From a virus (taxonomy: Duplodnaviria; Heunggongvirae; Uroviricota; Caudoviricetes), in the IMG/VR virus record IMGVR_UViG_2713896779_000022: 35,191 nt of DNA, one strand, 5' to 3'. Below the pieces are notes generated by a model. That model worked only from the letters and a program-made list of their open reading frames with translations. It searched no databases and had not been told where the DNA came from. Positions 8,945 to 35,191 of the stretch are shown here, piece after piece; position 1 is the stretch's first letter; every line of letters starts with the position of its first letter. Both the position numbers and the translations under genes were made by a program.

Positions 8945-9508
8945 ATGCTAAATAATAGAGATATGAATATTAATGAACTTAAAGACTGTATTCACTATGA
9001 AGTAATCGGTAGCGAGCGTCCTTTCTCCTGGCGAAAGGCAATTGTTCGCGCAATAAAACATAGAAGAGTTCGTTATTTATTTTGGTGGCGCATAGCCAAA
9101 TACCTTTTTGATAAAGGCGGATACTGTCGGAAGATTGCGGGGAAAATAGAACGTTTCATTCTTGATAAATATAATGTAACAGTCCCTTTAACTGTAAATA
9201 TAGGGAAAGGCTTTGATATTTCTTATCTCAATAGTGTTGTTATCGGTCACAAAGTAACCATCGGTGAAAATTGTTCAATAAAACCAGGGGTAACTATTGG
9301 GCTACGTGGTGATTTTAATGATATGGATATTGTTATAGGACATAATGTGACCATTGGTTGTAATGCCACCATTCTTGGTGGCAAAGTGCGTATAGGAAAC
9401 AATGTCACAATAGGTGCTCATGCATTGGTATTGCATGATATTCCTGATGATTCAACATTCATCACTAAATTTCAGTCTGAAGTTATCTGCTCGTCCTCCC
9501 GCACATAA
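8945..9508 (+). CDS. hexapeptide-repeat (left-handed beta-helix) O-acetyltransferase, WcaB/CysE/LacA-like; cargo gene at the Z/fun position
   Basis: Repeated [LIV]-G-x-x-[VI]-x-I-G hexapeptides ([45 protein letters not shown]); strongly AT-rich versus flanking tail genes; convergent with G. Confidence 0.8.
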
Positions 9509-22121: not shown

Positions 22122-23167
22122 TGAGCAGAAAAAATAAAAAAGTGCGCATGAGTTCACGCATTGATCTCGCTGATGCGCTCAGGAAAGAATCATCGCTCAG
22201 TGCATTCACATTTGATGGTCCTTATCGCCTGACCGGGCATGACCTGCTGGACAATATGTACTGTGCTGATAACGGGCGGTGGTATGAAACCCCGGTGGAC
22301 TGGTACGGTCTGGCAAGAGCTGCCCGGCAAACGTCCTGGCATCAGTCTGCGCTTTACTTTAAGCGCAATGTATTACTCGGTTGCTACATCCCGCACCCGC
22401 TGCTTTCCCGGCAGGATTTCTCGGCGCTGGCGCTGGACTGGTTTGTGTTCGGTAACGCATTCCTTGAGCTTCGAAGCAATATGCTCGGCGAACCGCTTAA
22501 ATTACGGCACGCACTGGCGAAATACATGCGACGCGGAAGCGATCTTGAATCATGGTGGTATGTGCAGGATGGCAAGGACGCGTTTCAGTTTCGCCCTGGC
22601 AAAGTGTGCCACCTGATGAATCCGGACATTAACCAGGAAATTTACGGCATGCCGGAATATCTTGGCGCATTACTCTCGGCCAGCCTGTCTCATTCGGCGG
22701 ACATGTTCAGAAAACTGTATTACGACAATGGATCCCACGCCGGGTGCATCATCTACATCGGTGCAGCGCAGGTAAACCGCGAAAGCATGGACTCCCTGAA
22801 AGAAACGTTACAGGGTGCGCGTGGTGGTGGTGCGTTTAAAAACGTGCTCATCCATGCTCCCAACGGGGGCAAAGAGGGGGGGCAAATTTTGCCGTTCCAG
22901 CAGATCACCGCAAAGGATGAGTTCATGAATGTTAAGGCGGCATCCCGTGATGATGTGCTGGCTGCGCACCTCGTTCCGCCGCAACTGATGGGGGCGATGC
23001 CGGGCGAAAAAAGTGCGTTTGGTGATGTGGAGAAGGCCGCGCGGGTTTACGCAATTAACGAGCTGATGCCCGTCATGGAGGCCATGAAGCACATCAATGA
23101 CTGGCTTGGCGAAGAGGTGATCCGCTTTAACCCTTACGCACTGTTAGACACCCAGCCCACATCCTGA
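22121..23167 (+). CDS. Q: portal vertex protein Q
   Basis: 348 aa, start overlapping P stop (TGATG); P2 gpQ size and position next to the cos region. Confidence 0.9.
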   Translation: MSRKNKKVRMSSRIDLADALRKESSLSAFTFDGPYRLTGHDLLDNMYCADNGRWYETPVDWYGLARAARQTSWHQSALYFKRNVLLGCYIPHPLLSRQDFSALALDWFVFGNAFLELRSNMLGEPLKLRHALAKYMRRGSDLESWWYVQDGKDAFQFRPGKVCHLMNPDINQEIYGMPEYLGALLSASLSHSADMFRKLYYDNGSHAGCIIYIGAAQVNRESMDSLKETLQGARGGGAFKNVLIHAPNGGKEGGQILPFQQITAKDEFMNVKAASRDDVLAAHLVPPQLMGAMPGEKSAFGDVEKAARVYAINELMPVMEAMKHINDWLGEEVIRFNPYALLDTQPTS

Positions 23168-23217: not shown

Positions 23218-23590
23218 GACTCTCCAGCTCCTGTATCAGTCAGATAATTTCACGACGCCTTCCAGTTTATCGCCACCATCGACAGTCAGACTCTTACGCA
23301 ATCCCACCGCGTTGACTGCATGTTCTCGCCGTCTCAGTGCGATTTTGACGGCCTTACCTTTCACCCCATAAATCAAAAGCCCTCACGTCTTTTTCACGCT
23401 CAGCGTGAGAAATACAGCCATTCTGTTGTATCTCTGCGACATCGTTCAGGGAATGCTATTTACCCCCTGAAACGCGGGCTGTTCCCCCGTCACCTGCGCG
23501 CAGAAAAAACGCGTTTTTTTGTGCACGCACGGATCCTTGACGGATCCAGCCGCCATGCGGGCCGGAAGGGTAAAAAGTCGTTCAAAAAAA

Positions 23591-23631
23591 TTGTGCAAAT
23601 TTGTGCACTATCGTGCAGTGTGCATCGTGCT
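23591..23631. repeat. array of GTGCA iterons with ~10-bp periodicity
   Basis: TTGTGCA at 23591 and 23601, then GTGCA at 23613 and 23620 and GTGCT at 23627; ~60 bp upstream of the membrane-protein ORF, inside the Q-to-cargo non-coding region. Confidence 0.45.
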
Positions 23632-23696
23632 GTTTTCTGCGCAAAAAACGGATGGTAAATTTGTTCGTAGCAGGGAAATTTTAATGAGCGCAAGAC

Positions 23697-24227
23697 ATGA
23701 AGAAAGATTCATATCCTTATTTGATTTGCATGACTGTTTCAGTGCTAGGGATTATTTTCCTCTTTTACTGGTGGAGGGCAGATATCTACAGGATTACATA
23801 TCTTAATTCGCGTATATCCAATTATTACATCTTGTGTAGTATGGGTATATCCTTTTTCTTCTCCTTGTTTCTGGTGAAGAGGGGGGTAGTGAAGCAAAGT
23901 GGCTGGAAAGGACTGTCGGAATACCTGAAGGTTTATGCTGGCTCTTGCATTCTTACAGGGATATTCCTGATTATCCCTCTTATGATGGTGACTTATTTTT
24001 TACCAGGAGTAACATCATCATATGTTGCACCGTATGAGTATACATCCGGTAGTTCAAGAAGCTGTTCCGGAGCGTTTGTTGATGATCCCGATCTGCATAA
24101 AAATATTCTTATTTGCTATCCGTATGGTAACTATGAATATGACAATATTATCTATGTTGAAAAGAAAACTAATGCATTGGGCGTTGTTGTGACGTATGCA
24201 CAGACTGCACGAGACGATGCTGAATAA
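23697..24227 (+). CDS. AT-rich cargo gene: polytopic membrane protein of unknown function
   Basis: 176 aa with three predicted TM helices and a Tyr/Ser-rich C-terminal domain; markedly lower GC than the phage backbone. Confidence 0.6.
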   Translation: MKKDSYPYLICMTVSVLGIIFLFYWWRADIYRITYLNSRISNYYILCSMGISFFFSLFLVKRGVVKQSGWKGLSEYLKVYAGSCILTGIFLIIPLMMVTYFLPGVTSSYVAPYEYTSGSSRSCSGAFVDDPDLHKNILICYPYGNYEYDNIIYVEKKTNALGVVVTYAQTARDDAE

Positions 24228-24318
24228 GATACTACAGAGATAGTCCACTTTTTTTGTTTATTTGTCGGGATAAAAACAAATTACCCCGACTCACCATGTA
24301 TTAATCTTCCGCTTTAAG

Positions 24319-24702
24319 TTAGTCTTGTAGCTGCGCTGTCCTGCTATGCAGCAAAGCGGCGTACTTTAATGCGTCCTGTGCTTTCTGTAATTTAAGTGCA
24401 TAGTCAGTGGCGATTTTTTCCAGTTCAGCGATTCGGTTGTCTTTGGTTTCCAGCCAATCAAGTAGCGCCAATACTTCAGGATCCCCGACATCCAACACTG
24501 TTACGCGTGATTTTTCATAATGTTCGTCGGCAAGAGTTCGGCCAATTTTGAAATCTCCATCATCACCATAACCGGAGCAGGCATAAACAACCTGTGCTCC
24601 AGATATTCGCTGAATTGACATTTCCTCGCCGCAAATAGGGCATTTCGGTACTGGCACAGGTGAATAACGTTCACGTAATGCCTGATAGTTGATTTCGCTC
24701 AT
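24319..24702 (-). CDS. hypothetical protein with N-terminal Cys cluster (zinc-ribbon-like) and C-terminal coiled coil
   Basis: 127 aa; CPICGEE...YACSG then heptad-rich helix (IAELEKIATDYALKLQKAQDALKYAALL); downstream of parR on the same strand. Confidence 0.55.
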   Translation of the reverse strand: MSEINYQALRERYSPVPVPKCPICGEEMSIQRISGAQVVYACSGYGDDGDFKIGRTLADEHYEKSRVTVLDVGDPEVLALLDWLETKDNRIAELEKIATDYALKLQKAQDALKYAALLHSRTAQLQD

Positions 24703-24765
24703 TAAGTCGTTCTCTTTGTTTATGTTCTGAGGTGGAGAGCAGGGCGAACTCGCCCTGATGTTGTG

Positions 24766-25077
24766 TTATTCAGGAAATAACGCCCGGATATTTCCGGCCA
24801 TCTGACTGGTTATCTGTGCGGTTGATACTGGCTGTGATGCGGGGCGTTCTGTCCTGGTTTGTGTCAGGGATAACGCTTCATCGTCAGCCCATGCAGCCAG
24901 TCGGTAAGCCTCTGCCGGATTAATTTTCATAAGTGCCAGTCCGGCCAGAAAAGCCACGCGTTGACCACTTTTGCGGGCTTCTGGTGTAAGGCTGTCCAGC
25001 CAGGCGCATGCTTCGCCTTCGTTCTTGACGGCGGCGGGCTTCAGATAGAAACTTATCCGTCTGGTTGGTGTCGTCAT
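24766..25077 (-). CDS. parR: ParR/StbB-like centromere-binding adaptor
   Basis: Start at MTTPTRRISFYLKP with RBS AAGGAG 7 nt upstream, 4 nt after parM stop; resembles R1 ParR N-terminus (RRTIAFKL...LTAGLALY vs RRISFYL...FLAGLALM). Confidence 0.7.
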   Translation of the reverse strand: MTTPTRRISFYLKPAAVKNEGEACAWLDSLTPEARKSGQRVAFLAGLALMKINPAEAYRLAAWADDEALSLTQTRTERPASQPVSTAQITSQMAGNIRALFPE

Positions 25078-25081
25078 TGGT

Positions 25082-26041
25082 TTACTCCTTGTCCATTGCG
25101 TACAGCCCATTAACCAGAGCAAACTGTGGCACCCCGTCCGCGATGAAAGTCGCATTAACTCCGCAGGCTTCGCGGATAGCGGGTGCCACAATCTCCGCCC
25201 CGCCACCGACAACCATCACCCGCCCGTAACCCGAAAAGCCCGCCAGCGCGCGGATCACGCGTTGTTTCAGTGTTTCTTCCTTTTCACGAATAACCGCCAT
25301 CAGGCTGGCGTAATGCGCGTCATTGTGGATGTGCTGGCGCAACCAGGCTTCATCATGGCGATGTTCGATAATGGTATTGGCGATGTGGTGACTGGTACGC
25401 ATACCGTTAGTGGCCATCACCGACAGTACGGCATCGGCCATCAGGGAAACGCCTACGTGTGGATCGCAAAACACCTGGCTGATACCTGCCAGTTGCCCCT
25501 GAACCTTTGCCACATCCAGTGTGGTTCCGCCTAAATCCACAATCAGCAGGGATTCAAACGGACTCATGTCAGCCAGTGCTTTAAAGCCAGCCGGAATGGA
25601 TTCAGGCATAACCCGTACGTTACGGATAGTGAATGCTTCGCCGTTCTGGTACTCCACCGGGCGCATAACGTTCGATTTTTTGCGGCTGATGTTGGCCATA
25701 TCCGGCTGTGCGTTTGTGTCGAAATACTCGCTCAGTGGCAGGGTGACAACCACATCCACCTCCTGTGGCGTGATGCCTGATTTGACCAGTGCGTGATGAA
25801 TGGCAATGACATTCACATCGCTGTACTGGTATTGCGTGTCGGTCGTCTGGACAAAGCGATCGCTGACCGGATCAAAACCATAGCGCACGCCATCAAGCAT
25901 GTAGTTCGCGGGCTGCGTGCCACCGAACGGCGCAGACCATTCCGACTTGAAGCTGTTCGGGCTGATGGCGTTGCGGCGTTCGCCGTTCTCAGCCCATGCC
26001 AGCTTGATGTTGGTGGAGCCGTCGTCGATACAAATTTTCAT
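25082..26041 (-). CDS. parM: ParM/StbA actin-like plasmid segregation ATPase
   Basis: 319 aa; collinear resemblance to R1 ParM along the whole length (IDDGSTNIKL.W, ISPNSFK.EW, YSDVNV.A.HHAL, IRNV.VMPESIPAG, DLGGTTLD, GGGAE, LVNG.Y). Confidence 0.9.
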   Translation of the reverse strand: MKICIDDGSTNIKLAWAENGERRNAISPNSFKSEWSAPFGGTQPANYMLDGVRYGFDPVSDRFVQTTDTQYQYSDVNVIAIHHALVKSGITPQEVDVVVTLPLSEYFDTNAQPDMANISRKKSNVMRPVEYQNGEAFTIRNVRVMPESIPAGFKALADMSPFESLLIVDLGGTTLDVAKVQGQLAGISQVFCDPHVGVSLMADAVLSVMATNGMRTSHHIANTIIEHRHDEAWLRQHIHNDAHYASLMAVIREKEETLKQRVIRALAGFSGYGRVMVVGGGAEIVAPAIREACGVNATFIADGVPQFALVNGLYAMDKE

Positions 26042-26072: not shown

Positions 26073-26181
26073 TTTACAGGATTTTTAAATCCCGCTTTTG
26101 CCTGTTTTGTGCGCGCCTCATATATCGCGGCACGTTTTTTGCTCATTTACGGGATTTGTGAATCCCGTTTCTGTCTGTTTT
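26073..26181. repeat. parC-like centromere/operator: two ~36-bp direct repeats each with a GGATTT(n2-4)AAATCC palindrome, flanking the parM promoter
   Basis: TTTACAGGATTTTTAAATCCCGCTTTTGCCTGTTTT (26073-26108) and TTTACGGGATTTGTGAATCCCGTTTCTGTCTGTTTT (26146-26181); the second copy overlaps the last 12 codons of gene A. Confidence 0.6.
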
Positions 26182-28959
26182 TTTGTTTCCACTGGTCAGG
26201 CTACCCCGCAGCAGGTCTGCTTTGCGGTGGGCGCGTTCAGTGGTTTCACTGATTCTCTGTGCGTGCTCTGCGTCACGGATGGCGCGCAGCATGTCAGAAA
26301 GCACGGTAACGGGGGTGGGCATGGTGTTCTGGTCCTGCTGAAGTGTGGATACCAGACGTGCGGCGGCTTCGGGGTCTGATGCCCCCAGCTGTTCCAGATA
26401 GCTGGCGACCGGGTTATGGCGGATCTCCGTGCTGCTTACGCCGTGATTACGGCTCAGGCGCTGCCAGAGCTGCGTGATTTGGCTGTCCGGGCGGGTATCC
26501 GGTTTGCGTACAATTTCAAATCCCTGCGGTGCAATGATGCTGCCGTCAACGTACAGGCTGCCGCCCCGTAACAGGTGCTGCATCTGCTGTTCACCAATAT
26601 GCAGGCCGAGAGATTCAGCAGACTCCCGCCATTCTTTAGCGAGTAACTCGTGGTTATCAGGCAAAGGCTGTGGCTGTTTGCGGCTCTGTGTCCAGTTCTG
26701 CATTTCATCGCTGCTGTTTTTTGCCTGTTTGTCACGAAGCGAACGCATCAGCGCCCGGCGTTCGTGCCGTTTCAGTGAATGCATCCATTCGTTCACTTCA
26801 ACGCCGTCAGGAAGCTGCGGCCACGGTGCTGGCCGTTCTTCCGGCTGTTCTGTCCCGTTGTTGTCCGTTTCCTGTACACGGGGACAGTTATTGCCACGAG
26901 TCCAAGGGGCGGCAGGGCCGCCCTGAAGGTCAAAACCATTTTCGTGGGCGTTGTCTTCCGGTTCTGGTTTACGTCTTACCAGCTTCCAGTTATCCGGATG
27001 CGTGCACACACGGGAGGATTCCCCGATGAGTGGTGACCAGATCCCGTAAATCTGTACGCTCTGTTCGCCGTAATCGTTCAGCTCATCTGCGAGGTCGTAG
27101 GCGGTGCGAATCAGGTAGTCCTTGCGTGGAACAAGCACGCCACCCTGTTTTTCAATGTAGGTGGCAAAACACCCGGCATCGGCGGCAGCGAGTACCGCAT
27201 CCATTGCATCATCTTTCAGCCGTTGCGGGCCTTCCGGATTGCGTGCCATCTGGCTGGCAAGGCGGCGCAGTTCACGCCACACCTGACGGGAGGGGATGCC
27301 AAAGAACTGGAACTGACGGACCCGGTGAAGGCGCGCCCAGCCGATGGCGCGCTCCACGCTCTCGGCCATTGATTTACCTGTTTCGTGGTCAACGCGTGGC
27401 TTGCCCGTTTTCGGGTCGATGCCATCCACGGCGCGGCTGTCCAGGTTCTTTCCGATGTAGGTGGCGATGTAGCTGGTTGGCGTGCCTTTTGAGCCGTCGA
27501 CGTACTCCGCCTTAAAACGCGGAGTTATGTCATTGCCCTGCTCGTGGCGGTCTTCCTGAATGGCAATATCGCAGACGTGGGACACGATGGTTACAATCTC
27601 GTCAGGATGAGCAAAAACCATCATGTGCCAGTGCACCGTGCCGTCATGATGAGGCTCCACCGTGCGGATGCCATACCAGCGCAGGCCGTCGCGGTTCAGT
27701 TTTTTGCGGACCGCCGCAAAAAACGTGTTAACCAGGTAATCGCTGGAGTCGTGCATAGTGGCCCCGTTCCATTTGGGATTCGGATGACCGTTCTCCGTTG
27801 TTGCGTGGTATTTTGACGGGCAGGTGACAGTCAGAAACACCGCTCTGTCGCCACGGGCTTCGGCCAGAAGTTCCAGCCCCTTCATGGTGGCCATCATTTC
27901 TGCCTTACGGTGAACCGGGTTACTTACTCCCGCGTAATACACTGTCTCGAGATCAATCGTGAACCCGTCTTCATTTTCCAGCATGAAACTTTTCAGGAAA
28001 TCGCGTGTTTTCTCGCGCTGTGCGCGAAACTCGCTTAACGCGTCCTGGCTCAGATAGGGTGATGTTTTTCTGGAAACCAGACAGGCGGCGCGGAGTTGTT
28101 CTTCTCTCCACTCGCAACGTAACAGCCACAGTTTGCGTTTCCACCATTCCGCACAGGTCAGGCGAAGGATTGCGCCCGGCAGCAGCTCCGTGTCCGGTTC
28201 GTTCCTCCGGTCTTTGTCTGTTGTCAGTGCGTCATAATGTGGAGGCATGGCGTGCAGGTGTAACGCCATGCGGGCCAGCATCTGATACGCCTTCAGCGTT
28301 ACATCCATGGTCAGTTCGCCATCAGTCGCGCCAAAGCCATCGCAGAGTTTTTCGAAGGTGCTGCTGAACATCGCCGCCGTCATGGTGGCCAGCGTCTGTA
28401 TCTGGTGTTTGTTGAGCTGCGGCAGGTAAAGCAAATCGTCCAGGCGTTCGCGTCCGGCAAGGGAGCGATAACCCGGTGTCAGCCAGCGGTGATCGGTGCG
28501 GTCCAGACGTTCGAATATTTTGCGCAGGGTTCCGCGCGCGTAGCGTTCAGCCTGCCAGCTCTTTTTGCCTTTCTGGCGATCGGCTTCCTGTTTTTTGCGC
28601 AGGAAAGAGAGGTGGCGGCTCAGAGGTTCACGCAGATAAACGGGAAGCACCTTCAGTGTGGCAAAAGCACGGGCCACCGGGTCTTGTTCTGTTGCCTGAC
28701 GCTTGCTGATGATGCTTTGTGCCAGCTTTTCACGCTGTCCGGCTTCCTCAAGGGATGCCATGAGTTTTTTACCCACGGTGGATTGTGCGAAAAAGGCTTC
28801 CTCCTTCGCTTCCTGTTCTTCCAGAGCCTTTTTGTCTGCCTCAAGGTAGTAACGGATGGCGCGTTGCAGGTCGGTTTCAGTTTCCTGCCTGTGCTCCGTA
28901 AATCTGGCCGGATCAATGGCTGGCCGTGGTTCATTCCAGCTCCATGCAAACTCATTCAT
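26143..28959 (-). CDS. A: replication initiation protein A (rolling-circle endonuclease)
   Basis: Start at MNEFAWSW (ATGA overlap with upstream ORF); contains HUH-type motif TVHWHMMVF and catalytic Tyr pair in YIATYIGK; ~938 aa, longer than P2 gpA. Confidence 0.9.
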   Translation of the reverse strand: MNEFAWSWNEPRPAIDPARFTEHRQETETDLQRAIRYYLEADKKALEEQEAKEEAFFAQSTVGKKLMASLEEAGQREKLAQSIISKRQATEQDPVARAFATLKVLPVYLREPLSRHLSFLRKKQEADRQKGKKSWQAERYARGTLRKIFERLDRTDHRWLTPGYRSLAGRERLDDLLYLPQLNKHQIQTLATMTAAMFSSTFEKLCDGFGATDGELTMDVTLKAYQMLARMALHLHAMPPHYDALTTDKDRRNEPDTELLPGAILRLTCAEWWKRKLWLLRCEWREEQLRAACLVSRKTSPYLSQDALSEFRAQREKTRDFLKSFMLENEDGFTIDLETVYYAGVSNPVHRKAEMMATMKGLELLAEARGDRAVFLTVTCPSKYHATTENGHPNPKWNGATMHDSSDYLVNTFFAAVRKKLNRDGLRWYGIRTVEPHHDGTVHWHMMVFAHPDEIVTIVSHVCDIAIQEDRHEQGNDITPRFKAEYVDGSKGTPTSYIATYIGKNLDSRAVDGIDPKTGKPRVDHETGKSMAESVERAIGWARLHRVRQFQFFGIPSRQVWRELRRLASQMARNPEGPQRLKDDAMDAVLAAADAGCFATYIEKQGGVLVPRKDYLIRTAYDLADELNDYGEQSVQIYGIWSPLIGESSRVCTHPDNWKLVRRKPEPEDNAHENGFDLQGGPAAPWTRGNNCPRVQETDNNGTEQPEERPAPWPQLPDGVEVNEWMHSLKRHERRALMRSLRDKQAKNSSDEMQNWTQSRKQPQPLPDNHELLAKEWRESAESLGLHIGEQQMQHLLRGGSLYVDGSIIAPQGFEIVRKPDTRPDSQITQLWQRLSRNHGVSSTEIRHNPVASYLEQLGASDPEAAARLVSTLQQDQNTMPTPVTVLSDMLRAIRDAEHAQRISETTERAHRKADLLRGSLTSGNKKTDRNGIHKSRK

Positions 28960-29345
28960 GGCTGGTATCCCGTCACGCGCTGCCACTCCTGCGAGAAGAG
29001 GGCAGAAAGGCGGTTAAATTCAGCGGTGTATTCACTCAGCGAGGCACACCCGCCAGCAGTGCGATGCGCCAGCATTGCCGCAAATACGGAGGCCGGGGAG
29101 TCGTAATACGCCAGCAGTGATTCTCCGTGTGGTGTCAGGCAGTGCAACGCCAGCCCGTGTGGTGTGAAGTCCACGCGGTAGCAGTCGTCTACTGTGAAAT
29201 AAAGGGTGTCTGCATTCTCCGGTTTTGTGGTGCGTGCTCTGTTGTCACGACCACGGATGTAGAGATCAAATAATCCCTGAAGAACGGGAGCCAGACGGGT
29301 GTCCTGTGTGCGCACCCATCTTGTGAAGTCATGAGCGTCAATCAT
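28956..29345 (-). CDS. hypothetical early protein, translationally coupled to A
   Basis: 129-aa ORF whose stop overlaps the A start (ATGA). Confidence 0.6.
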   Translation of the reverse strand: MIDAHDFTRWVRTQDTRLAPVLQGLFDLYIRGRDNRARTTKPENADTLYFTVDDCYRVDFTPHGLALHCLTPHGESLLAYYDSPASVFAAMLAHRTAGGCASLSEYTAEFNRLSALFSQEWQRVTGYQP

Positions 29346-30756: not shown

Positions 30757-31131
30757 CTATGCGTTAAATACGGCACGTTGCGCGTCATCAATGAATACAG
30801 CTTGAGATCGTTCTATCAGGCGGAGATTTGTCAGAAGCTCTGACTCTTTTGTGTGGTAAGGCGTTATCAGGTATTTGCCGTGCAGTTCGGCAATAATGGT
30901 GTATTGCGTCATTATTGCCGAACCAAGAATGTAAATGCGGCGTCCAATGCTGGACGGATTCATGGCTGCAACTGTTGACTGTGTTTTAAGAGTGTCGATT
31001 TCTTTGCTCTGTTCCTCAATAATTTTGGCTGCTTCAGAGGTGGCTATTGCGATGGTCAGTGCGTAAAGCGCTGCCATATGTTGATTATCTTTCTGGGCTG
31101 CCCTGGACAGCTTGTCTTGCTCTGCTGACAC
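30757..31131 (-). CDS. hypothetical early protein
   Basis: 124-aa ORF; start uncertain (internal Met at MAALYALT; an alternative short frame with RBS GGAGAT begins at ~31178). Confidence 0.5.
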   Translation of the reverse strand: MSAEQDKLSRAAQKDNQHMAALYALTIAIATSEAAKIIEEQSKEIDTLKTQSTVAAMNPSSIGRRIYILGSAIMTQYTIIAELHGKYLITPYHTKESELLTNLRLIERSQAVFIDDAQRAVFNA

Positions 31132-31266
31132 TATTTTTAATGTATTGATAATATTTTTTTTCTTTTGCGTTCATTTTATATCTCCGTTATTTACGTGTGC
31201 GAATACCTCCGCGAATGCGGATAGTTTTCAGGTTTTCAGGTTTAATCTGGTGTTTTGTTTAAGCTG

Positions 31267-31919: not shown

Positions 31920-32270
31920 TTATAAATCAGCCTGTTTAATAAAACTTTGCCCGCGAAGCAGACGATCAACCGTGCGAAGTGCTTCGTATAATGTGAAATC
32001 CTGCCCGAAGTGATTGTCGCCGCAGTTCAATGCAAAAATGCGGTTTCCGGTAAATGGATTGCGTGGGCATTTGTGGACCACGATTCCAGCTTTCTCAATC
32101 AGCCAGGCATGCTCGCCGATTTGTTTTACAGCGTGGCCATCCGGTGTTGCGTGCGTCTCGTTCAGGTTATAGCGACTGTTACTACGTGATGCACTGGTAG
32201 CGACGTGGTGTACATGGCGTTCTACGCCATTACGAAATTTGGAGTATGGATTATTAGCGTTTTTTTTCAT
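31920..32270 (-). CDS. hypothetical early protein
   Basis: 116-aa ORF. Confidence 0.5.
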   Translation of the reverse strand: MKKNANNPYSKFRNGVERHVHHVATSASRSNSRYNLNETHATPDGHAVKQIGEHAWLIEKAGIVVHKCPRNPFTGNRIFALNCGDNHFGQDFTLYEALRTVDRLLRGQSFIKQADL

Positions 32271-32291
32271 GATGGTGCTCTGTTCATTGTT

Positions 32292-32495
32292 TTAGCTGTT
32301 AGCCAAAGCGTCTTTTAACATCGCCACAAGGTTTACTTCAGGCTTTTCCATTTTGGCGCGTTTGGGGCGGATAATAATTCGACCGTCAGCCAACATCTTT
32401 TTGCATGTATTAAGAGGGATACCTGTTATCTCTGCATATTTCTGCAGGGATACATAGGGGGCATTCACATTGATATTGATGGTTATACCTGACAT
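32292..32495 (-). CDS. Cox/Apl-like small HTH regulator (putative excision/switch protein)
   Basis: 67 aa; segment YVSLQKYAEITGIPLNTCKKMLADGRIII matches the pattern of P2 Cox (YQEFAKLIGKSTGAVRRMIDKGKLPVI); second gene of the early operon. Confidence 0.55.
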   Translation of the reverse strand: MSGITININVNAPYVSLQKYAEITGIPLNTCKKMLADGRIIIRPKRAKMEKPEVNLVAMLKDALANS

Positions 32496-32511
32496 CCCAC
32501 TAGCCTCCTGA

Positions 32512-32718
32512 TCAGGAAGATTTGTTTTGTTCTTTCTGGGTTAGCTCTAGGCCGCGAAGGAAGATCATGCGCGCCATGTTAGAGGATGAGCGTTGTTCTT
32601 TAGCTGCCATTTCATCAATGACGGCTCGCTCCTCGAGGGACAGCCGAAGTGCCAGTCTTGGACCTGTGGCGGTGTTACGCGGAATGCGTGATCTGGTATC
32701 GTGAAGAACTTGTTTCAT
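32512..32718 (-). CDS. ribbon-helix-helix (CopG/Arc-type) DNA-binding protein; first gene of the early operon
   Basis: 68 aa; RHH signature LSLEERAVIDEMAAKEQRSSSNMARMIFLRGL; divergent from repressor C. Confidence 0.65.
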   Translation of the reverse strand: MKQVLHDTRSRIPRNTATGPRLALRLSLEERAVIDEMAAKEQRSSSNMARMIFLRGLELTQKEQNKSS

Positions 32719-32793
32719 AGTGGTATATTGTGATCATCTAATAGCTCGTGAAATCATTTTGGTATCAAAAAAGATACCTGTCAAGGTTTTTGT
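32719..32793. promoter_or_regulatory. immunity switch region (early/repressor promoters and operators)
   Basis: 75-bp gap between divergent RHH gene and C; direct repeats TGGTAT at 32721 and 32760; palindrome GGTATC-aaaaaa-GATACC at 32761-32778. Confidence 0.5.
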
Positions 32794-33198
32794 ATGAAAA
32801 ATGATATTGGTCAGCGGTTGCGTGAGGAAAGGGAAAGATTGGGACTTAGTCAAGTTGCCATGAGCGACATTGGTGGAGTCAAAAAGCTAACTCAGCTTAG
32901 ATATGAGAAAGGAGATAGCTTTCCTGATGCTGCGTATTTGGCAGCGCTGTCTCGTTTTGGCCTTGATGTTCAGTATGTTGTGTTGGGAATTCACTCACCT
33001 GAAACTTATAACGATGATGAGCAGGAGTTGATTACTCGCTTTCGAGCAGCTTCGTTAGATGTGAAAAACGCGGTGATTGGGGCTTTAAAAGGTGCGATCA
33101 GTGAAAAGGAAACTCAGCCATCAGGACGTGAGTTAAATATTTCTGGTGGTAATAACCGTATCGCTGGTCGTGACTATAACGAAACTAAGGGTAGGTGA
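32794..33198 (+). CDS. C: immunity repressor C (HTH_XRE family)
   Basis: N-terminal XRE-type HTH (IGQRLREERERLGLSQVAMSDIGGVKKLTQLRYEKG); position divergent from the early operon and upstream of int, as for P2 C. Confidence 0.8.
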   Translation: MKNDIGQRLREERERLGLSQVAMSDIGGVKKLTQLRYEKGDSFPDAAYLAALSRFGLDVQYVVLGIHSPETYNDDEQELITRFRAASLDVKNAVIGALKGAISEKETQPSGRELNISGGNNRIAGRDYNETKGR

Positions 33199-33213
33199 TA
33201 GTAGGGAGGTGAC

Positions 33214-33537
33214 ATGGCCGTCAACTCAAACGGTTCAAACAATCGCGTTGCTGGGCGTGATTTTCACGAAAAGAATATTCAGATAGAGCGATATGATGGT
33301 TCTCATACCGTCAATATCGCAATCCCTTCGAATAATGATGATGACGATCGCCCTTTGCTTAAGGCTCAGCGTAAGGAGCTAAATAGCTTGGTTGCTGCTA
33401 TTGCAGAAGCTAGCAATACTGAAGCGTTTATTATTTGGCAAAAAGTACATGCGGAGATTGGTGTAGCTGGTATTGATGATATGATAGTAAATCAATATAA
33501 AACAGCGGAGAGTTTTCTGCATGCAATGCTTGAGTGA
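33214..33537 (+). CDS. hypothetical lysogenic-operon protein sharing an N-terminal motif with the repressor tail
   Basis: 107-aa ORF with strong RBS GGGAGG; N-terminus SNGSNNRVAGRDFHEK repeats the repressor C-terminus SGGNNRIAGRDYNET; ends at TGA 33535-33537. Confidence 0.6.
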   Translation: MAVNSNGSNNRVAGRDFHEKNIQIERYDGSHTVNIAIPSNNDDDDRPLLKAQRKELNSLVAAIAEASNTEAFIIWQKVHAEIGVAGIDDMIVNQYKTAESFLHAMLE

Positions 33538-33864
33538 TGTAAAGATCATGATGCCTGTAAGGCTCTTGTAAGTTTATTACTACGTAACAGTGAAGACTGT
33601 GGACTTCGACAAAAACTTCTGCGGTATTGCCATATCAATTTCGGTACAGGACGTTTAAACGATCTTACTCGTTCTCAGTTACAGTCTGCATTGTCGTGGT
33701 TAGAGCAACAATCGGCATCAAGCCACACAGAGAGTTCGACCTTACCAGAAGTCCGACTTCGTGCTTCAGAATTAATCCGACTTTATCCAAAAGAAATAAT
33801 ATTCTTTATCTGCGTAGGGGTTTTGGTAGGCGGTGTCATTTCTAGGGCGTTTTTTAATTTGTAA
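33538..33864 (+). other. in-frame continuation of the preceding ORF beyond a single TGA, encoding a C-terminal transmembrane segment
   Basis: 108 sense codons in the same frame as 33214-33537, no ATG, ending ...LYPKEIIFFICVGVLVGGVISRAFFNL*; either the broken 3' half of one gene or readthrough extension. Confidence 0.35.
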
Positions 33865-33893
33865 TCTTACTTGAGCTAAATTGAGGTAATGAT

Positions 33894-34241
33894 ATGAAAG
33901 TAAAAAATGTTCAACTATTAGTTACTTTTTTATCTATGTTTTCTTTTTCCGCCGTCGCAATGCCTTTTAAAACTATTGAACGTGAGAGTTTTAATGGGGT
34001 ATGGCCATTTAATACTGATGAGGTTCAATTACAGTGTCTTGATGGTAATCCTTATGTGATGAATTTTGACGATAATAAGTTATATGCACTTACAGGTTTG
34101 GCTCGAATAAAAGGTAAAACATTTGGTGCGTTACCGTTAGATAACAATAATCCATTTTGGCTAGATAATGATGCCGCCCCAGGGTTAAAAAAGAGTCTGG
34201 GGGATGTCACTAAGGCTGCATTTGATTTATGTGATAAGTAA
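33894..34241 (+). CDS. small secreted/periplasmic protein of unknown function (cargo gene)
   Basis: 115 aa with Sec-type signal peptide (MKVKNVQLLVTFLSMFSFSAVA) and two Cys; AT-rich; between C and int. Confidence 0.65.
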   Translation: MKVKNVQLLVTFLSMFSFSAVAMPFKTIERESFNGVWPFNTDEVQLQCLDGNPYVMNFDDNKLYALTGLARIKGKTFGALPLDNNNPFWLDNDAAPGLKKSLGDVTKAAFDLCDK

Positions 34242-34246
34242 CTAAA

Positions 34247-34358
34247 ATGTCGGTTCGTAAGATTCCATCAGGTAAATGGCTTTGCGAATGTTATCCCTAC
34301 GGGGCATCGGGAAAACGCATTCGTAAACAGTTTGCGACAAAAAGTGAGGCGCTTGAGG
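34247..34358 (+). pseudogene. int: P2-type tyrosine integrase, N-terminal ~37 codons only; truncated by IS insertion
   Basis: MSVRKIPSGKWLCECYPYGASGKRIRKQFATKSEALE resembles the P2 Int N-terminus (...GRNGKRIRRKFDKKSEAVAFEKY); frame runs into IS end TGTACTGG at 34359 and stops at TAG 34370-34372. Confidence 0.7.
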
Positions 34359-35191
34359 TGTACTGGCAATAGCGGACACTACCATTTGTTCTTTTTTTAA
34401 GCAGCCATCTGATGATATTTTTCCCTGAAGGCTGCCGGGGAGATATTCCCCAGACGAGAGTGACGACGCTGACGATTGTAGAAAATCTCAATGTATTCCC
34501 GTATTACTGAGATGGCTTCATCCCGGTTATTAAAACGATAGTGGCTCAGGCTCTCATTTTTCAGCGTTCCCCAGAAGCTTTCCATCGGAGCGTTGTCGTA
34601 ACAGTTACCTTTACGCGACATTGATGTTTTCAGACCAAACTGCTCCTGTATGACCCGGTAATCGTATGCGCAGTACTGTGAACCTCGATCAGAGTGGTGG
34701 ATTAGCCCGGCAGGTGGGCGCTGGCTCCTGAGCGCCATAAACAGAGCTTTACCTGTCAGCTCTTTTGTCATGCGCTCTCCCATGGCGTAGCCGACAATTT
34801 CGCACGTATAAACATCTTTGATGCCAGCGAGGTACAACCATCCCTCCTGTGTGGCAACATACGTCAGGTCCGCCACCCAGACCTGATTTGGTGCTGTAGG
34901 AGCGAACGTCTGGTTCAGCAGATTTGGCGCAACTGGCAGATTGTGGTTCGAGTTCGTAGTCGCTCTGAACTTGCGTTTCTGCTTACAGCGTAGCCTTAGC
35001 TCCTTACGAAGACGTGCCAGTCGGTCACGACCAACGATGATGCCATTCTCTGCCAGCTCCGTCTGGAGCCGCCGGGTTCCATATGTTTCGCGAGTGCGGA
35101 TATGTGCCACCTTAATCTCCAGTTTTAGCCGCTCATCACTTTGTTTTCTGTCTGAGGGTTCATGCTGTACCCAGTTGTAATAACCGCTCCT
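34359..35191 (-). mobile_element. IS3-family insertion sequence (distinct from the left-edge IS), inserted in int; continues beyond window
   Basis: Terminus begins TGTACTG at 34359 (IS3/IS150-type end); OrfB-like transposase on the minus strand stays open to the window edge. Confidence 0.8.
34397..35191 (-). CDS. IS3-family transposase OrfB (partial, N-terminal part and OrfA outside window)
   Basis: DDE-domain blocks (VWVADLTYV, HHSDRGSQY, CYDNAPMESFWGTLK); frame remains open upstream of the track start to position 35191. Confidence 0.85.
   Translation of the reverse strand, partial: RSGYYNWVQHEPSDRKQSDERLKLEIKVAHIRTRETYGTRRLQTELAENGIIVGRDRLARLRKELRLRCKQKRKFRATTNSNHNLPVAPNLLNQTFAPTAPNQVWVADLTYVATQEGWLYLAGIKDVYTCEIVGYAMGERMTKELTGKALFMALRSQRPPAGLIHHSDRGSQYCAYDYRVIQEQFGLKTSMSRKGNCYDNAPMESFWGTLKNESLSHYRFNNRDEAISVIREYIEIFYNRQRRHSRLGNISPAAFREKYHQMAA

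Follow-up and report, generated by a model that had tools for sequence, protein, structure and literature searches.

A probable repressor companion and a swappable gene for a predicted secreted protein between the repressor and int of a P2-like Escherichia coli prophage

In phage P2, the immunity repressor gene C is followed directly by the integrase gene int, with a gap of 115 bp between the two. The DNA considered here, a 35,191-nucleotide stretch catalogued in IMG/VR as IMGVR_UViG_2713896779_000022 and called the window throughout, is a P2-like (Peduoviridae) prophage of Escherichia coli in which the repressor gene (32794-33198) and the start of int (34247) lie on the same strand about 1 kb apart. 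What fills this interval, and of what use might it be to the lysogen? The original prediction, made from the letters of the window, took the P2 order as its baseline, correctly so, and proposed that two AT-rich cargo genes had been inserted between C and int, where they would be expressed with the lysogenic transcript for the benefit of the host. The repressor of this prophage, however, is not a C protein of the P2 type but a different XRE/CI-type protein of about 130 amino acids (aa). We consider it moderately probable that the interval is made of two parts on one lysogenic transcript: a gene that would be a partner of the repressor and is a pseudogene in this copy (gene A), and a piece of swappable cargo that would protect the envelope (gene B).

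The first of these genes is longer than it had seemed. The 107-aa gene listed at 33214-33537 in the original prediction is only the N-terminal half of a gene of 216 codons, which is interrupted by an in-frame TGA and whose frame stays open past that codon to 33864; the stretch 33538-33893, left unexplained at the time, holds the remainder. In RefSeq, identical DNA in strain RM8352 is annotated as a pseudogene with an internal stop, and in strain C7 and in O157:H7 EC4115 the gene is intact, with CGA (Arg108) at the position of the stop and an annotated product of 216 aa. Arg108 is nearly invariant across the gene A family. The exact 60-mer with the TGA occurs in 9 of the 410 complete E. coli genomes that have the region, the other 401 differing from it by one or two bases. 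This rarity, together with the CGA found in relatives, marks the nonsense mutation as a recent, lineage-specific knock-out of gene A. No in-frame restart is present in gene A before a TTG 52 codons past the TGA. Read-through or selenocysteine insertion at the TGA was set aside, given that 401 of 410 genomes differ from the 60-mer and that the relatives examined have either CGA or an intact product of 216 aa.

What most distinguishes gene A is the company it keeps. In every locus examined the order is helix-turn-helix (HTH) repressor, gene A, variable DNA and int, and homologues of the window's repressor lie directly 5' of every gene A homologue. The order holds in E. coli variants and in prophages of Klebsiella, Enterobacter, Serratia and Citrobacter, in one genome each of Rosenbergiella, Mixta, Izhakiella, Enterobacter soli and Hafnia, in degraded copies found in Symbiopectobacterium and Arsenophonus, and in IMG/VR prophages, among them a deep group with only about 30% identity in gene A and an HTH/CI-type repressor upstream of it. 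Identities to the window proteins range from 31 to 63% for the repressor and from 40 to 68% for gene A and are not tightly correlated, the pair remaining linked as its members diverge, and a single gene A cluster comprises 754 Klebsiella pneumoniae contigs. Since gene A is present beside the repressor in every locus and only the DNA past it varies, it behaves as a companion and not as cargo. On the strength of this gene order, gene A appears to be a standing, conserved partner of this repressor family, and prophages of this XRE/CI immunity type normally have the repressor-A pair.

These observations bear on the view that both genes form one AT-rich foreign block, placed between an ancestrally adjacent repressor and int and kept for its benefit to the lysogen. 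A sliding-window check of G+C content (GC) does place the GC minimum at 33214-34241 (0.386 against 0.526 for the window; among all 1028-bp windows only 0.3% are lower), which makes the interval between repressor and int the most AT-rich kilobase of the window. Comparison with relatives is also compatible with an insertion, P2 having no genes in the interval and Vibrio phage K139 having two extra ones. Base composition nevertheless separates the two genes: gene A, at 0.41, fits the repressor (0.44) and the early region (0.435), and gene B, at 0.348 and 25% at third codon positions, is the sole outlier against its immediate surroundings. When the constant position of gene A beside the repressor, the conserved terminal motif that the two have in common (described below) and the pseudogene nature of the 107-aa fragment are added, a single block of cargo becomes very unlikely. 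The proposal of two inserted cargo genes thus survives in its second half: gene B lies at a variable position, is the most AT-rich, and is replaced by defence genes in relatives, whereas gene A is a conserved companion.

A further tie between gene A and the repressor lies in the proteins themselves. The repressor ends in NISGGNNRIAGRDYNE followed by TKGR, and gene A starts with MAV followed by NSNGSNNRVAGRDFHE, such that a motif of the form GxxNRxAGRD[YF]xE is found at the C-terminus of the one product and at the N-terminus of the next; the original prediction had already pointed to gene A as a motif-sharing gene. Ten of the 16 residues are identical between the two tails, and at six of these ten the codons differ. 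Conservation is consequently at the protein level, and a DNA-level repeat or recombination scar is ruled out as the origin of the motif. Relatives of gene A retain it at their N-terminus down to about 25% identity. Scans of IMG/VR with single distant homologues found nothing; a motif-seeded scan of the same database with an alignment of 11 sequences gave 80 loci, which represent 55 distinct repressor/A pairs, and in 48 of these pairs the motif stands at both termini, across deep divergence. In an AlphaFold2 model of the gene A family the motif segment is predicted to be disordered. Conservation of one motif on two free and disordered ends of neighbouring products suggests either direct binding between the repressor and gene A tails or competition between them for a single site.

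Gene A also belongs to a recognizable, if small, protein family, and this membership opens another possible interpretation of its role. It matches phrog_5825 from end to end (E-value 4e-103), and its homologues bear the precomputed Pfam domain PF27202, Flk_N. In the AlphaFold2 model of the family, residues 1-40 are disordered and are followed by a helical bundle at 50-172 (predicted local distance difference test, pLDDT, of 80-90), a disordered linker and a terminal helix at 192-214. The Kyte-Doolittle maximum of gene A, 3.03, falls at residues 195-209, and a short hydrophobic C-terminus is conserved across the family; the protein is thus predicted to be anchored in the membrane by its C-terminus, with its bulk facing the cytoplasm. 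A Foldseek search of the model against the PDB gave nothing significant, the best match being the SaPI2 Stl regulator over about 65 residues (E-value 0.9). Flk itself inhibits the flagellar secretion-specificity switch and has been found to interact with FlhA-C in a two-hybrid assay (PMC13344023), and gene A could on these grounds be a phage copy of Flk that acts on the flagellar export gate FlhA and so alters motility or flagellin display in the lysogen. In favour of this, BLASTP aligns gene A with the first of the two modules of E. coli Flk (28% identity across 121 residues, E-value 2e-10), there is a match to the NCBIfam Flk model NF007987 (E-value 8.6e-16, profile positions 20-149 of 339), and the predicted architecture, a Flk_N helical module with a C-terminal tail anchor and a cytoplasmic bulk, is the same. 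The score of 58.1 bits, however, is far from the Flk equivalog cut-off of 353. Flk is a protein of about 330 aa with two modules, encoded on the chromosome at pdxB-flk; gene A encodes 216 aa with one module, lies in a prophage, and has the N-terminal GxxNRxAGRD motif that is absent from the chromosomal Flk proteins examined. Moreover, gene A is abundant in prophages of K. pneumoniae (the 754 contigs mentioned above), a classically non-flagellated species, and a flagellar role would leave its strict pairing with the repressor unexplained. We accordingly hold a flagellar function to be most improbable. An exhaustive profile search returned a family of 135 representatives, divided into a short type of 185-230 aa and a Flk type of 320-420 aa with two modules. 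There is no fused HTH-Flk_N protein among these representatives, and P0252, the one member with an N-terminal extension that was examined, has a Rha domain; the idea that gene A is the split part of a membrane-tethered repressor is therefore unsupported.

If gene A is indeed a partner of the repressor, it would meet the repressor at the membrane through the shared motif, or the two proteins would compete for one binding site, and contact of this kind would link the activity or stability of the repressor to the inner membrane. The retention of a membrane-anchored protein beside a repressor over deep divergence, with a terminal motif common to both, suggests a layer of lysogeny control that has not been described. 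A loose precedent is offered by the amyloid motif pairs Bab/Agp (BASS11), which are found in E. coli prophage hotspots and likewise have a C-terminal and an N-terminal motif on adjacent products, one of them membrane-targeting (10.1101/2024.11.07.622273). There, however, a sensor of the NLR/STAND/TPR type is paired with a pore-forming effector, and here an HTH repressor is paired with a tail-anchored helical protein; the repressor/A motif is also shorter and more charged, and the likeness is one of genomic signature alone. By analogy, one could propose a two-protein switch in which the motif mediates strand-to-strand or templated association of repressor and gene A and thereby couples lysogeny to a signal at the inner membrane, a speculative extension that we rate as rather unlikely. 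Were it true, a membrane protein could capture, stabilize or inactivate the repressor, the O121 nonsense allele would be a natural knock-out of lysogeny control, and the arrangement would be common to a large family of P2-like prophages. A 2011 survey of P2-like regulatory regions contains no discussion of genes between repressor and int, and a literature search by protein accession found nothing. The pairing and its motif thus appear to be uncharacterized, and they are the part of this locus that merits experiment.

The DNA downstream of gene A is of a different character. Between the stop of gene A and the start of int, related prophages carry at least eight unrelated types of cassette in a slot that varies from 302 to 2652 bp in length. 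In every locus measured the slot has a lower GC than int, and in nearly all of them a lower GC than gene A as well. The occupants include DUF2511 proteins (gene B in the window), acidic DUF8087 proteins, BRCT or BRCT+WYL proteins, an Abi_alpha protein (PDC-S47, E-value 3e-63), an NsnB/AriA-like AAA_15 ATPase with a partner gene (E-value 2e-51), VasI-like and other secreted proteins, a pair made of a zinc-ribbon and a tail-anchored coiled-coil protein, and degraded remnants. In Klebsiella prophages at one and the same attachment site, the slot holds either a BRCT/WYL protein or a YebY-like protein. This is a classical accessory-gene hotspot: the slot of gene B keeps a fixed position, and gene A is itself one of its conserved flanks. 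Known hotspots of P2-like prophages likewise have fixed positions and an AT-rich content, with defence systems among it, that is exchanged rapidly (Rousset et al., 2022, PMC9122126; PMC13586616, 2026), and the slot can be placed inside the minor "integrase to primase" defence hotspot described for these prophages (PMC13586616). It differs from the known hotspots in being narrower, in lying inside the lysogenic operon, and in holding many small secreted proteins that are unrecognized by defence-finding tools. The slot as such is therefore ordinary, but it offers a narrow and easily recognized position for exchange, from the stop of the Flk_N gene to the start of int, in a prophage family that is also found in Klebsiella, Enterobacter, Serratia and Citrobacter. 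Since many of its occupants are small secreted proteins missed by defence prediction, functions in superinfection exclusion or toxin immunity could be held among them. We also note a candidate uncharacterized two-gene system in four loci (L049 3644-4416, L052 3960-4726, L056 4274-5099 and L097 4648-5497); in the L049 copy, the only one scanned, neither gene has a match in PADLOC.

Gene B is the occupant of this slot in the window. The proposed 115-aa open reading frame (ORF) with a signal peptide at 33894-34241 was confirmed: lysines at positions 2 and 4 of its N-terminus are followed by a hydrophobic core (residues 8-22), with A-V-A just ahead of the predicted cleavage site, as is typical of signal peptides. 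The protein matches Pfam PF10709 (DUF2511) with 28.3 bits against a gathering score of 21, over profile positions 2-87 of 87, and phrog_2950 with an E-value of 1.6e-39; PF10709 is precomputed on 15 of the 18 protein clusters related to it. The alignment of homologues has variable signal peptides and a conserved mature part, in which W37, C48 and C113 are invariant and align with YebY. A Foldseek search of the gene B model, which is of moderate confidence (mean pLDDT 72.7), returned 7n0j, 6qfp and 2mvo as its top three matches, each with a probability of 1.00, and nothing else below an E-value of 0.9. Homologues with 59-83% identity lie between gene A and int in prophages of Klebsiella, Citrobacter, Serratia and Rosenbergiella, and those of Scandinavium and Erwinia are on the same contigs as gene A homologues. 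That yebY homologues in Enterobacteriaceae can be flanked by a XerD-like recombinase and a phage CI repressor has been noted before (PMC8689200). Gene B is thus true cargo, an accessory gene in a prophage hotspot whose family context had already been seen.

As to what such a protein might do for the lysogen, its fold offers two precedents, YebY of the E. coli yobA-yebZ-yebY operon (PDB 7N0J) and MlbQ, a Microbispora lipoprotein (PDB 2MVO), to which gene B is about 31% and 22% identical in structural alignment. YebY has been located in the periplasm by experiment and has a disulfide between Cys48 and Cys113; MlbQ confers self-resistance to a lantibiotic (PMC8689200). Gene B shares the PF10709 fold with both and, with YebY, the signal peptide, Trp37 and the Cys48/Cys113 pair; it differs from both in lying in a prophage and not in a copper operon or a lantibiotic cluster. 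By these likenesses, gene B would be exported by means of its Sec signal peptide, oxidized to the disulfide form, folded like YebY and MlbQ, and active as a small binding protein of the periplasm, where it would protect the lysogen's envelope. It could do so by blocking superinfection at a step that follows adsorption, in the manner of K139 Glo, or by neutralizing an envelope-acting toxin or peptide, as has been proposed for MlbQ.

The main rival for gene B is a role in copper. Under this alternative, gene B would work as YebY does, modulating the CopD-type importer YebZ from the periplasm, and would influence copper uptake and mar-dependent antibiotic tolerance; its benefit would be a metabolic lysogenic conversion and not protection against phages or toxins. 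Family, fold, signal peptide and the Trp/Cys pair are all those of YebY, and YebY is reported to lower YebZ-dependent copper accumulation (PMC11923076). Several features of gene B nonetheless fit poorly with such a role. The resemblance is distant, with the identity of about 31% being found in the structural alignment and the sequence match to YebY 7n0j having an E-value of 0.0027, and the chromosome of E. coli K-12 already has a yebY of its own. In the loci examined, no copC (yobA) or copD (yebZ) stands next to gene B, its neighbours being gene A and int, and the proteins that take its place in the slot are of defence type or secreted. YebY itself binds copper only weakly, and only after reduction (PMC8689200). 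A copper-related function, and with it metabolic conversion, is for these reasons unlikely. Whichever function applies, gene B provides a second recurrent context for DUF2511/YebY proteins besides copper operons, and this context may help to settle what the fold binds.

The closest parallel to the whole interval is found in K139 (Peduoviridae, Longwoodvirus), where the annotated lysogenic promoter precedes cI, orf2 (a BRCT protein), glo and int, and where Glo is annotated as a "periplasmic protein; involved in phage exclusion". As in the window, extra genes lie between repressor and int on the lysogenic transcript, and the gene directly 5' of int encodes a small protein with a signal peptide. 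Its cI is longer, however (215 aa), and with no gene annotated between cI and orf2 there is no equivalent of gene A. The product of K139 orf2 (L116 2194-3099) is 36% identical (E-value 3e-54) to a cassette of the slot described here, and homologues of orf2 occupy that slot in enterobacterial prophages (L051 3646-4530, L074 4912-5829 and L097 3651-4529). Their presence in the same slot indicates that the cassette moves between genera of Peduoviridae while its position is kept.

Expression of the interval with the repressor is the remaining element of our proposal. The gaps between repressor and gene A, gene A and gene B, and gene B and int measure 15, 29 and 5 bp, Shine-Dalgarno sequences precede genes A and B, and a scan of 32200-34420 found no terminator-like site. 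From the tight spacing and the lack of a terminator-like site in that scan, it is reasonable to infer that repressor, gene A, gene B and int are co-transcribed in the lysogen, and a lysogenic promoter would thus drive a single unit made up of the repressor, gene A, the slot gene and int. The repressor gene points away from the early operon and in the same direction as int. A promoter-like site for the leftward early operon adjoins the start of the repressor, in an arrangement that parallels the annotated Pe/Pc of P2; as evidence this site is weak, two such sites having been found where 5.5 are expected by chance. No convincing promoter or terminator flanks gene B in the scan, and gene B therefore lacks the transcription signals of its own that characterize a classical moron. 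At the junction of repressor and gene A (33196-33216), where the two genes are in the same frame, the sequence reads TGA TAG TAG GGA GGT GAC ATG, that is, three consecutive stop codons followed by a Shine-Dalgarno sequence. This junction is found again in E. coli prophages whose repressor is 41-44% identical (L007, L026); in other genera the junction has a single TAA or TAG stop and a gap of 7-18 bp.

A number of points weigh against the two-part interpretation. The terminal motif could be recognized by a third factor, such as a protease, and not by its counterpart on the neighbouring protein. No convincing rightward promoter was found by simple scan. The early stop in gene A might cause polarity and lower the expression of gene B. 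No homology between gene B and K139 Glo is detectable, such that gene B as a homologue of Glo was rejected, and the only Gram-negative DUF2511 protein to have been studied, YebY, is concerned with copper import and not with phage exclusion (PMC11923076). PADLOC gave no match for gene A or gene B. Finally, the module is decaying in this strain, with gene A truncated and int disrupted.

This last point raises the question of how far the window represents a working prophage at all. Over the stretch 32700-34353 the window has 100% identity with O121 and O121:H19 chromosomes, in which yecA/tyrP adjoin the prophage, and 97.6% with Escherichia phage 520873 (genus Xuanwuvirus). That phage was the only match for genes A and B in a tblastn search of 50,697 phage records, apart from weak Ralstonia phage matches for gene A. 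Of 5,426 complete E. coli genomes, 504 (about 9%) carry at least 80% of this stretch, strains of O157:H7 (e.g., EC4115), O121, O103 and O111 among them. The int gene is not intact in the window, being cut after about 36 codons (near 34354) by an element of the insertion sequence (IS) family IS3, inside which the window ends; the intact Int of relatives has 333 aa and the domains Int_N and Phage_integrase. The terminal 50 bp of the IS3 element are identical to copies in many Stx phages (including Stx2a), and the best-matching complete O121 genomes lack the insertion and have an intact int. The insertion is thus strain-specific, and it should prevent excision. With gene A truncated, int cut by the element and an early gene frameshifted in RM8352, the prophage in the window is probably grounded, and one might argue from the same three lesions that the interval is the decaying remnant of a grounded prophage and has no function in this strain. 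Against this stand the repressor and gene B, both intact in the window despite the decay around them, and the gene B allele, identical in hundreds of genomes. Furthermore, the nonsense codon concerns a small lineage (9 of 410 genomes), and decay in that lineage is silent on the module in general. We therefore judge a non-functional interval to be clearly unlikely. The coordinates of the features discussed are collected in Table 1.

Table 1. Features of the repressor-int region of the window, with positions counted from the first letter of the window.
Feature	Position	Strand	Basis or remark
Promoter-like site of the leftward early operon, TTGACA-17-CAAAAT	32756..32784	-	Adjoins repressor start, like Pe in P2
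Immunity repressor, 134 aa, N-terminal XRE-type HTH	32794..33198	+	ORF; HTH matches; first gene of the lysogenic operon
Repressor C-terminal tail motif, NISGGNNRIAGRDYNE	33136..33183	+	Invariant in repressors 40-42% identical overall
Gene A, 216 codons, predicted tail-anchored Flk_N-domain protein, pseudogene here	33214..33864	+	Read-through translation; intact allele in C7
Gene A N-terminal motif, NSNGSNNRVAGRDFHE	33223..33270	+	Resembles repressor tail; conserved in family
In-frame TGA, R108* from CGA	33535..33537	+	Truncates gene A
C-terminal hydrophobic anchor of gene A (predicted), residues 195-216	33796..33861	+	Untranslatable in this allele
Variable cargo slot, gene A stop to int start, with gene B as occupant	33865..34246	+	Unrelated contents across relatives
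Gene B, 115 aa, predicted secreted DUF2511/YebY-family protein	33894..34241	+	Signal peptide about 33894-33959
int 5' stub, tyrosine integrase, about 36 codons	34247..34353	+	Match to intact int genes stops at 34353
Partial IS3-family element	34354..35191	-	orfB transposase 34397-35110; domains rve, rve_2, rve_3 and HTH_21

Some minor observations concern the repressor and the early region beside it. The repressor has sub-threshold matches to the Pfam families HTH_31, HTH_19 and HTH_3 and to PHROG families of repressors and regulators. On the other side of the promoter-like site, RefSeq annotates a plus-strand ORF of 45 aa at 32567-32704. A minus-strand ORF of 68 aa within 32512-32718, with weak ribbon-helix-helix matches and named as an Arc-like repressor in phage 520873, is more plausible than the RefSeq ORF as the first gene of the early operon. 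The early gene tagged as frameshifted in RefSeq RM8352 corresponds to an ORF at 30757-31174 (L001 1058-1475) that is intact, with 138 aa, in strain C7. The RM8352 prophage is 100% identical to the window over the stretch compared, 32700-34353; if the window has the RM8352 frameshift at 30757-31174, this would be a further sign of decay.

Two other AT-rich islands are present elsewhere in the window. One, at about 8450-9100 (GC of about 0.40), contains an ORF of 187 aa with hexapeptide repeats of the acetyltransferase type (8945-9508), which lies just past the gpU tail gene and is possibly another accessory gene, in a tail-gene hotspot of P2-like phages. The other, at about 23450-23800 (GC of about 0.41), falls in a region (23320-25212) with two ORFs of 112 and 176 aa that have no Pfam match, adjoined by minus-strand genes of the Ead/Ea22-like and plasmid-stability-like kinds. 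This region lies between large rightward ORFs that end at 23167 and a leftward ORF of 947 aa at 26143-28986, and it would be the main P2 defence hotspot if these flanking ORFs are the packaging and replication genes.

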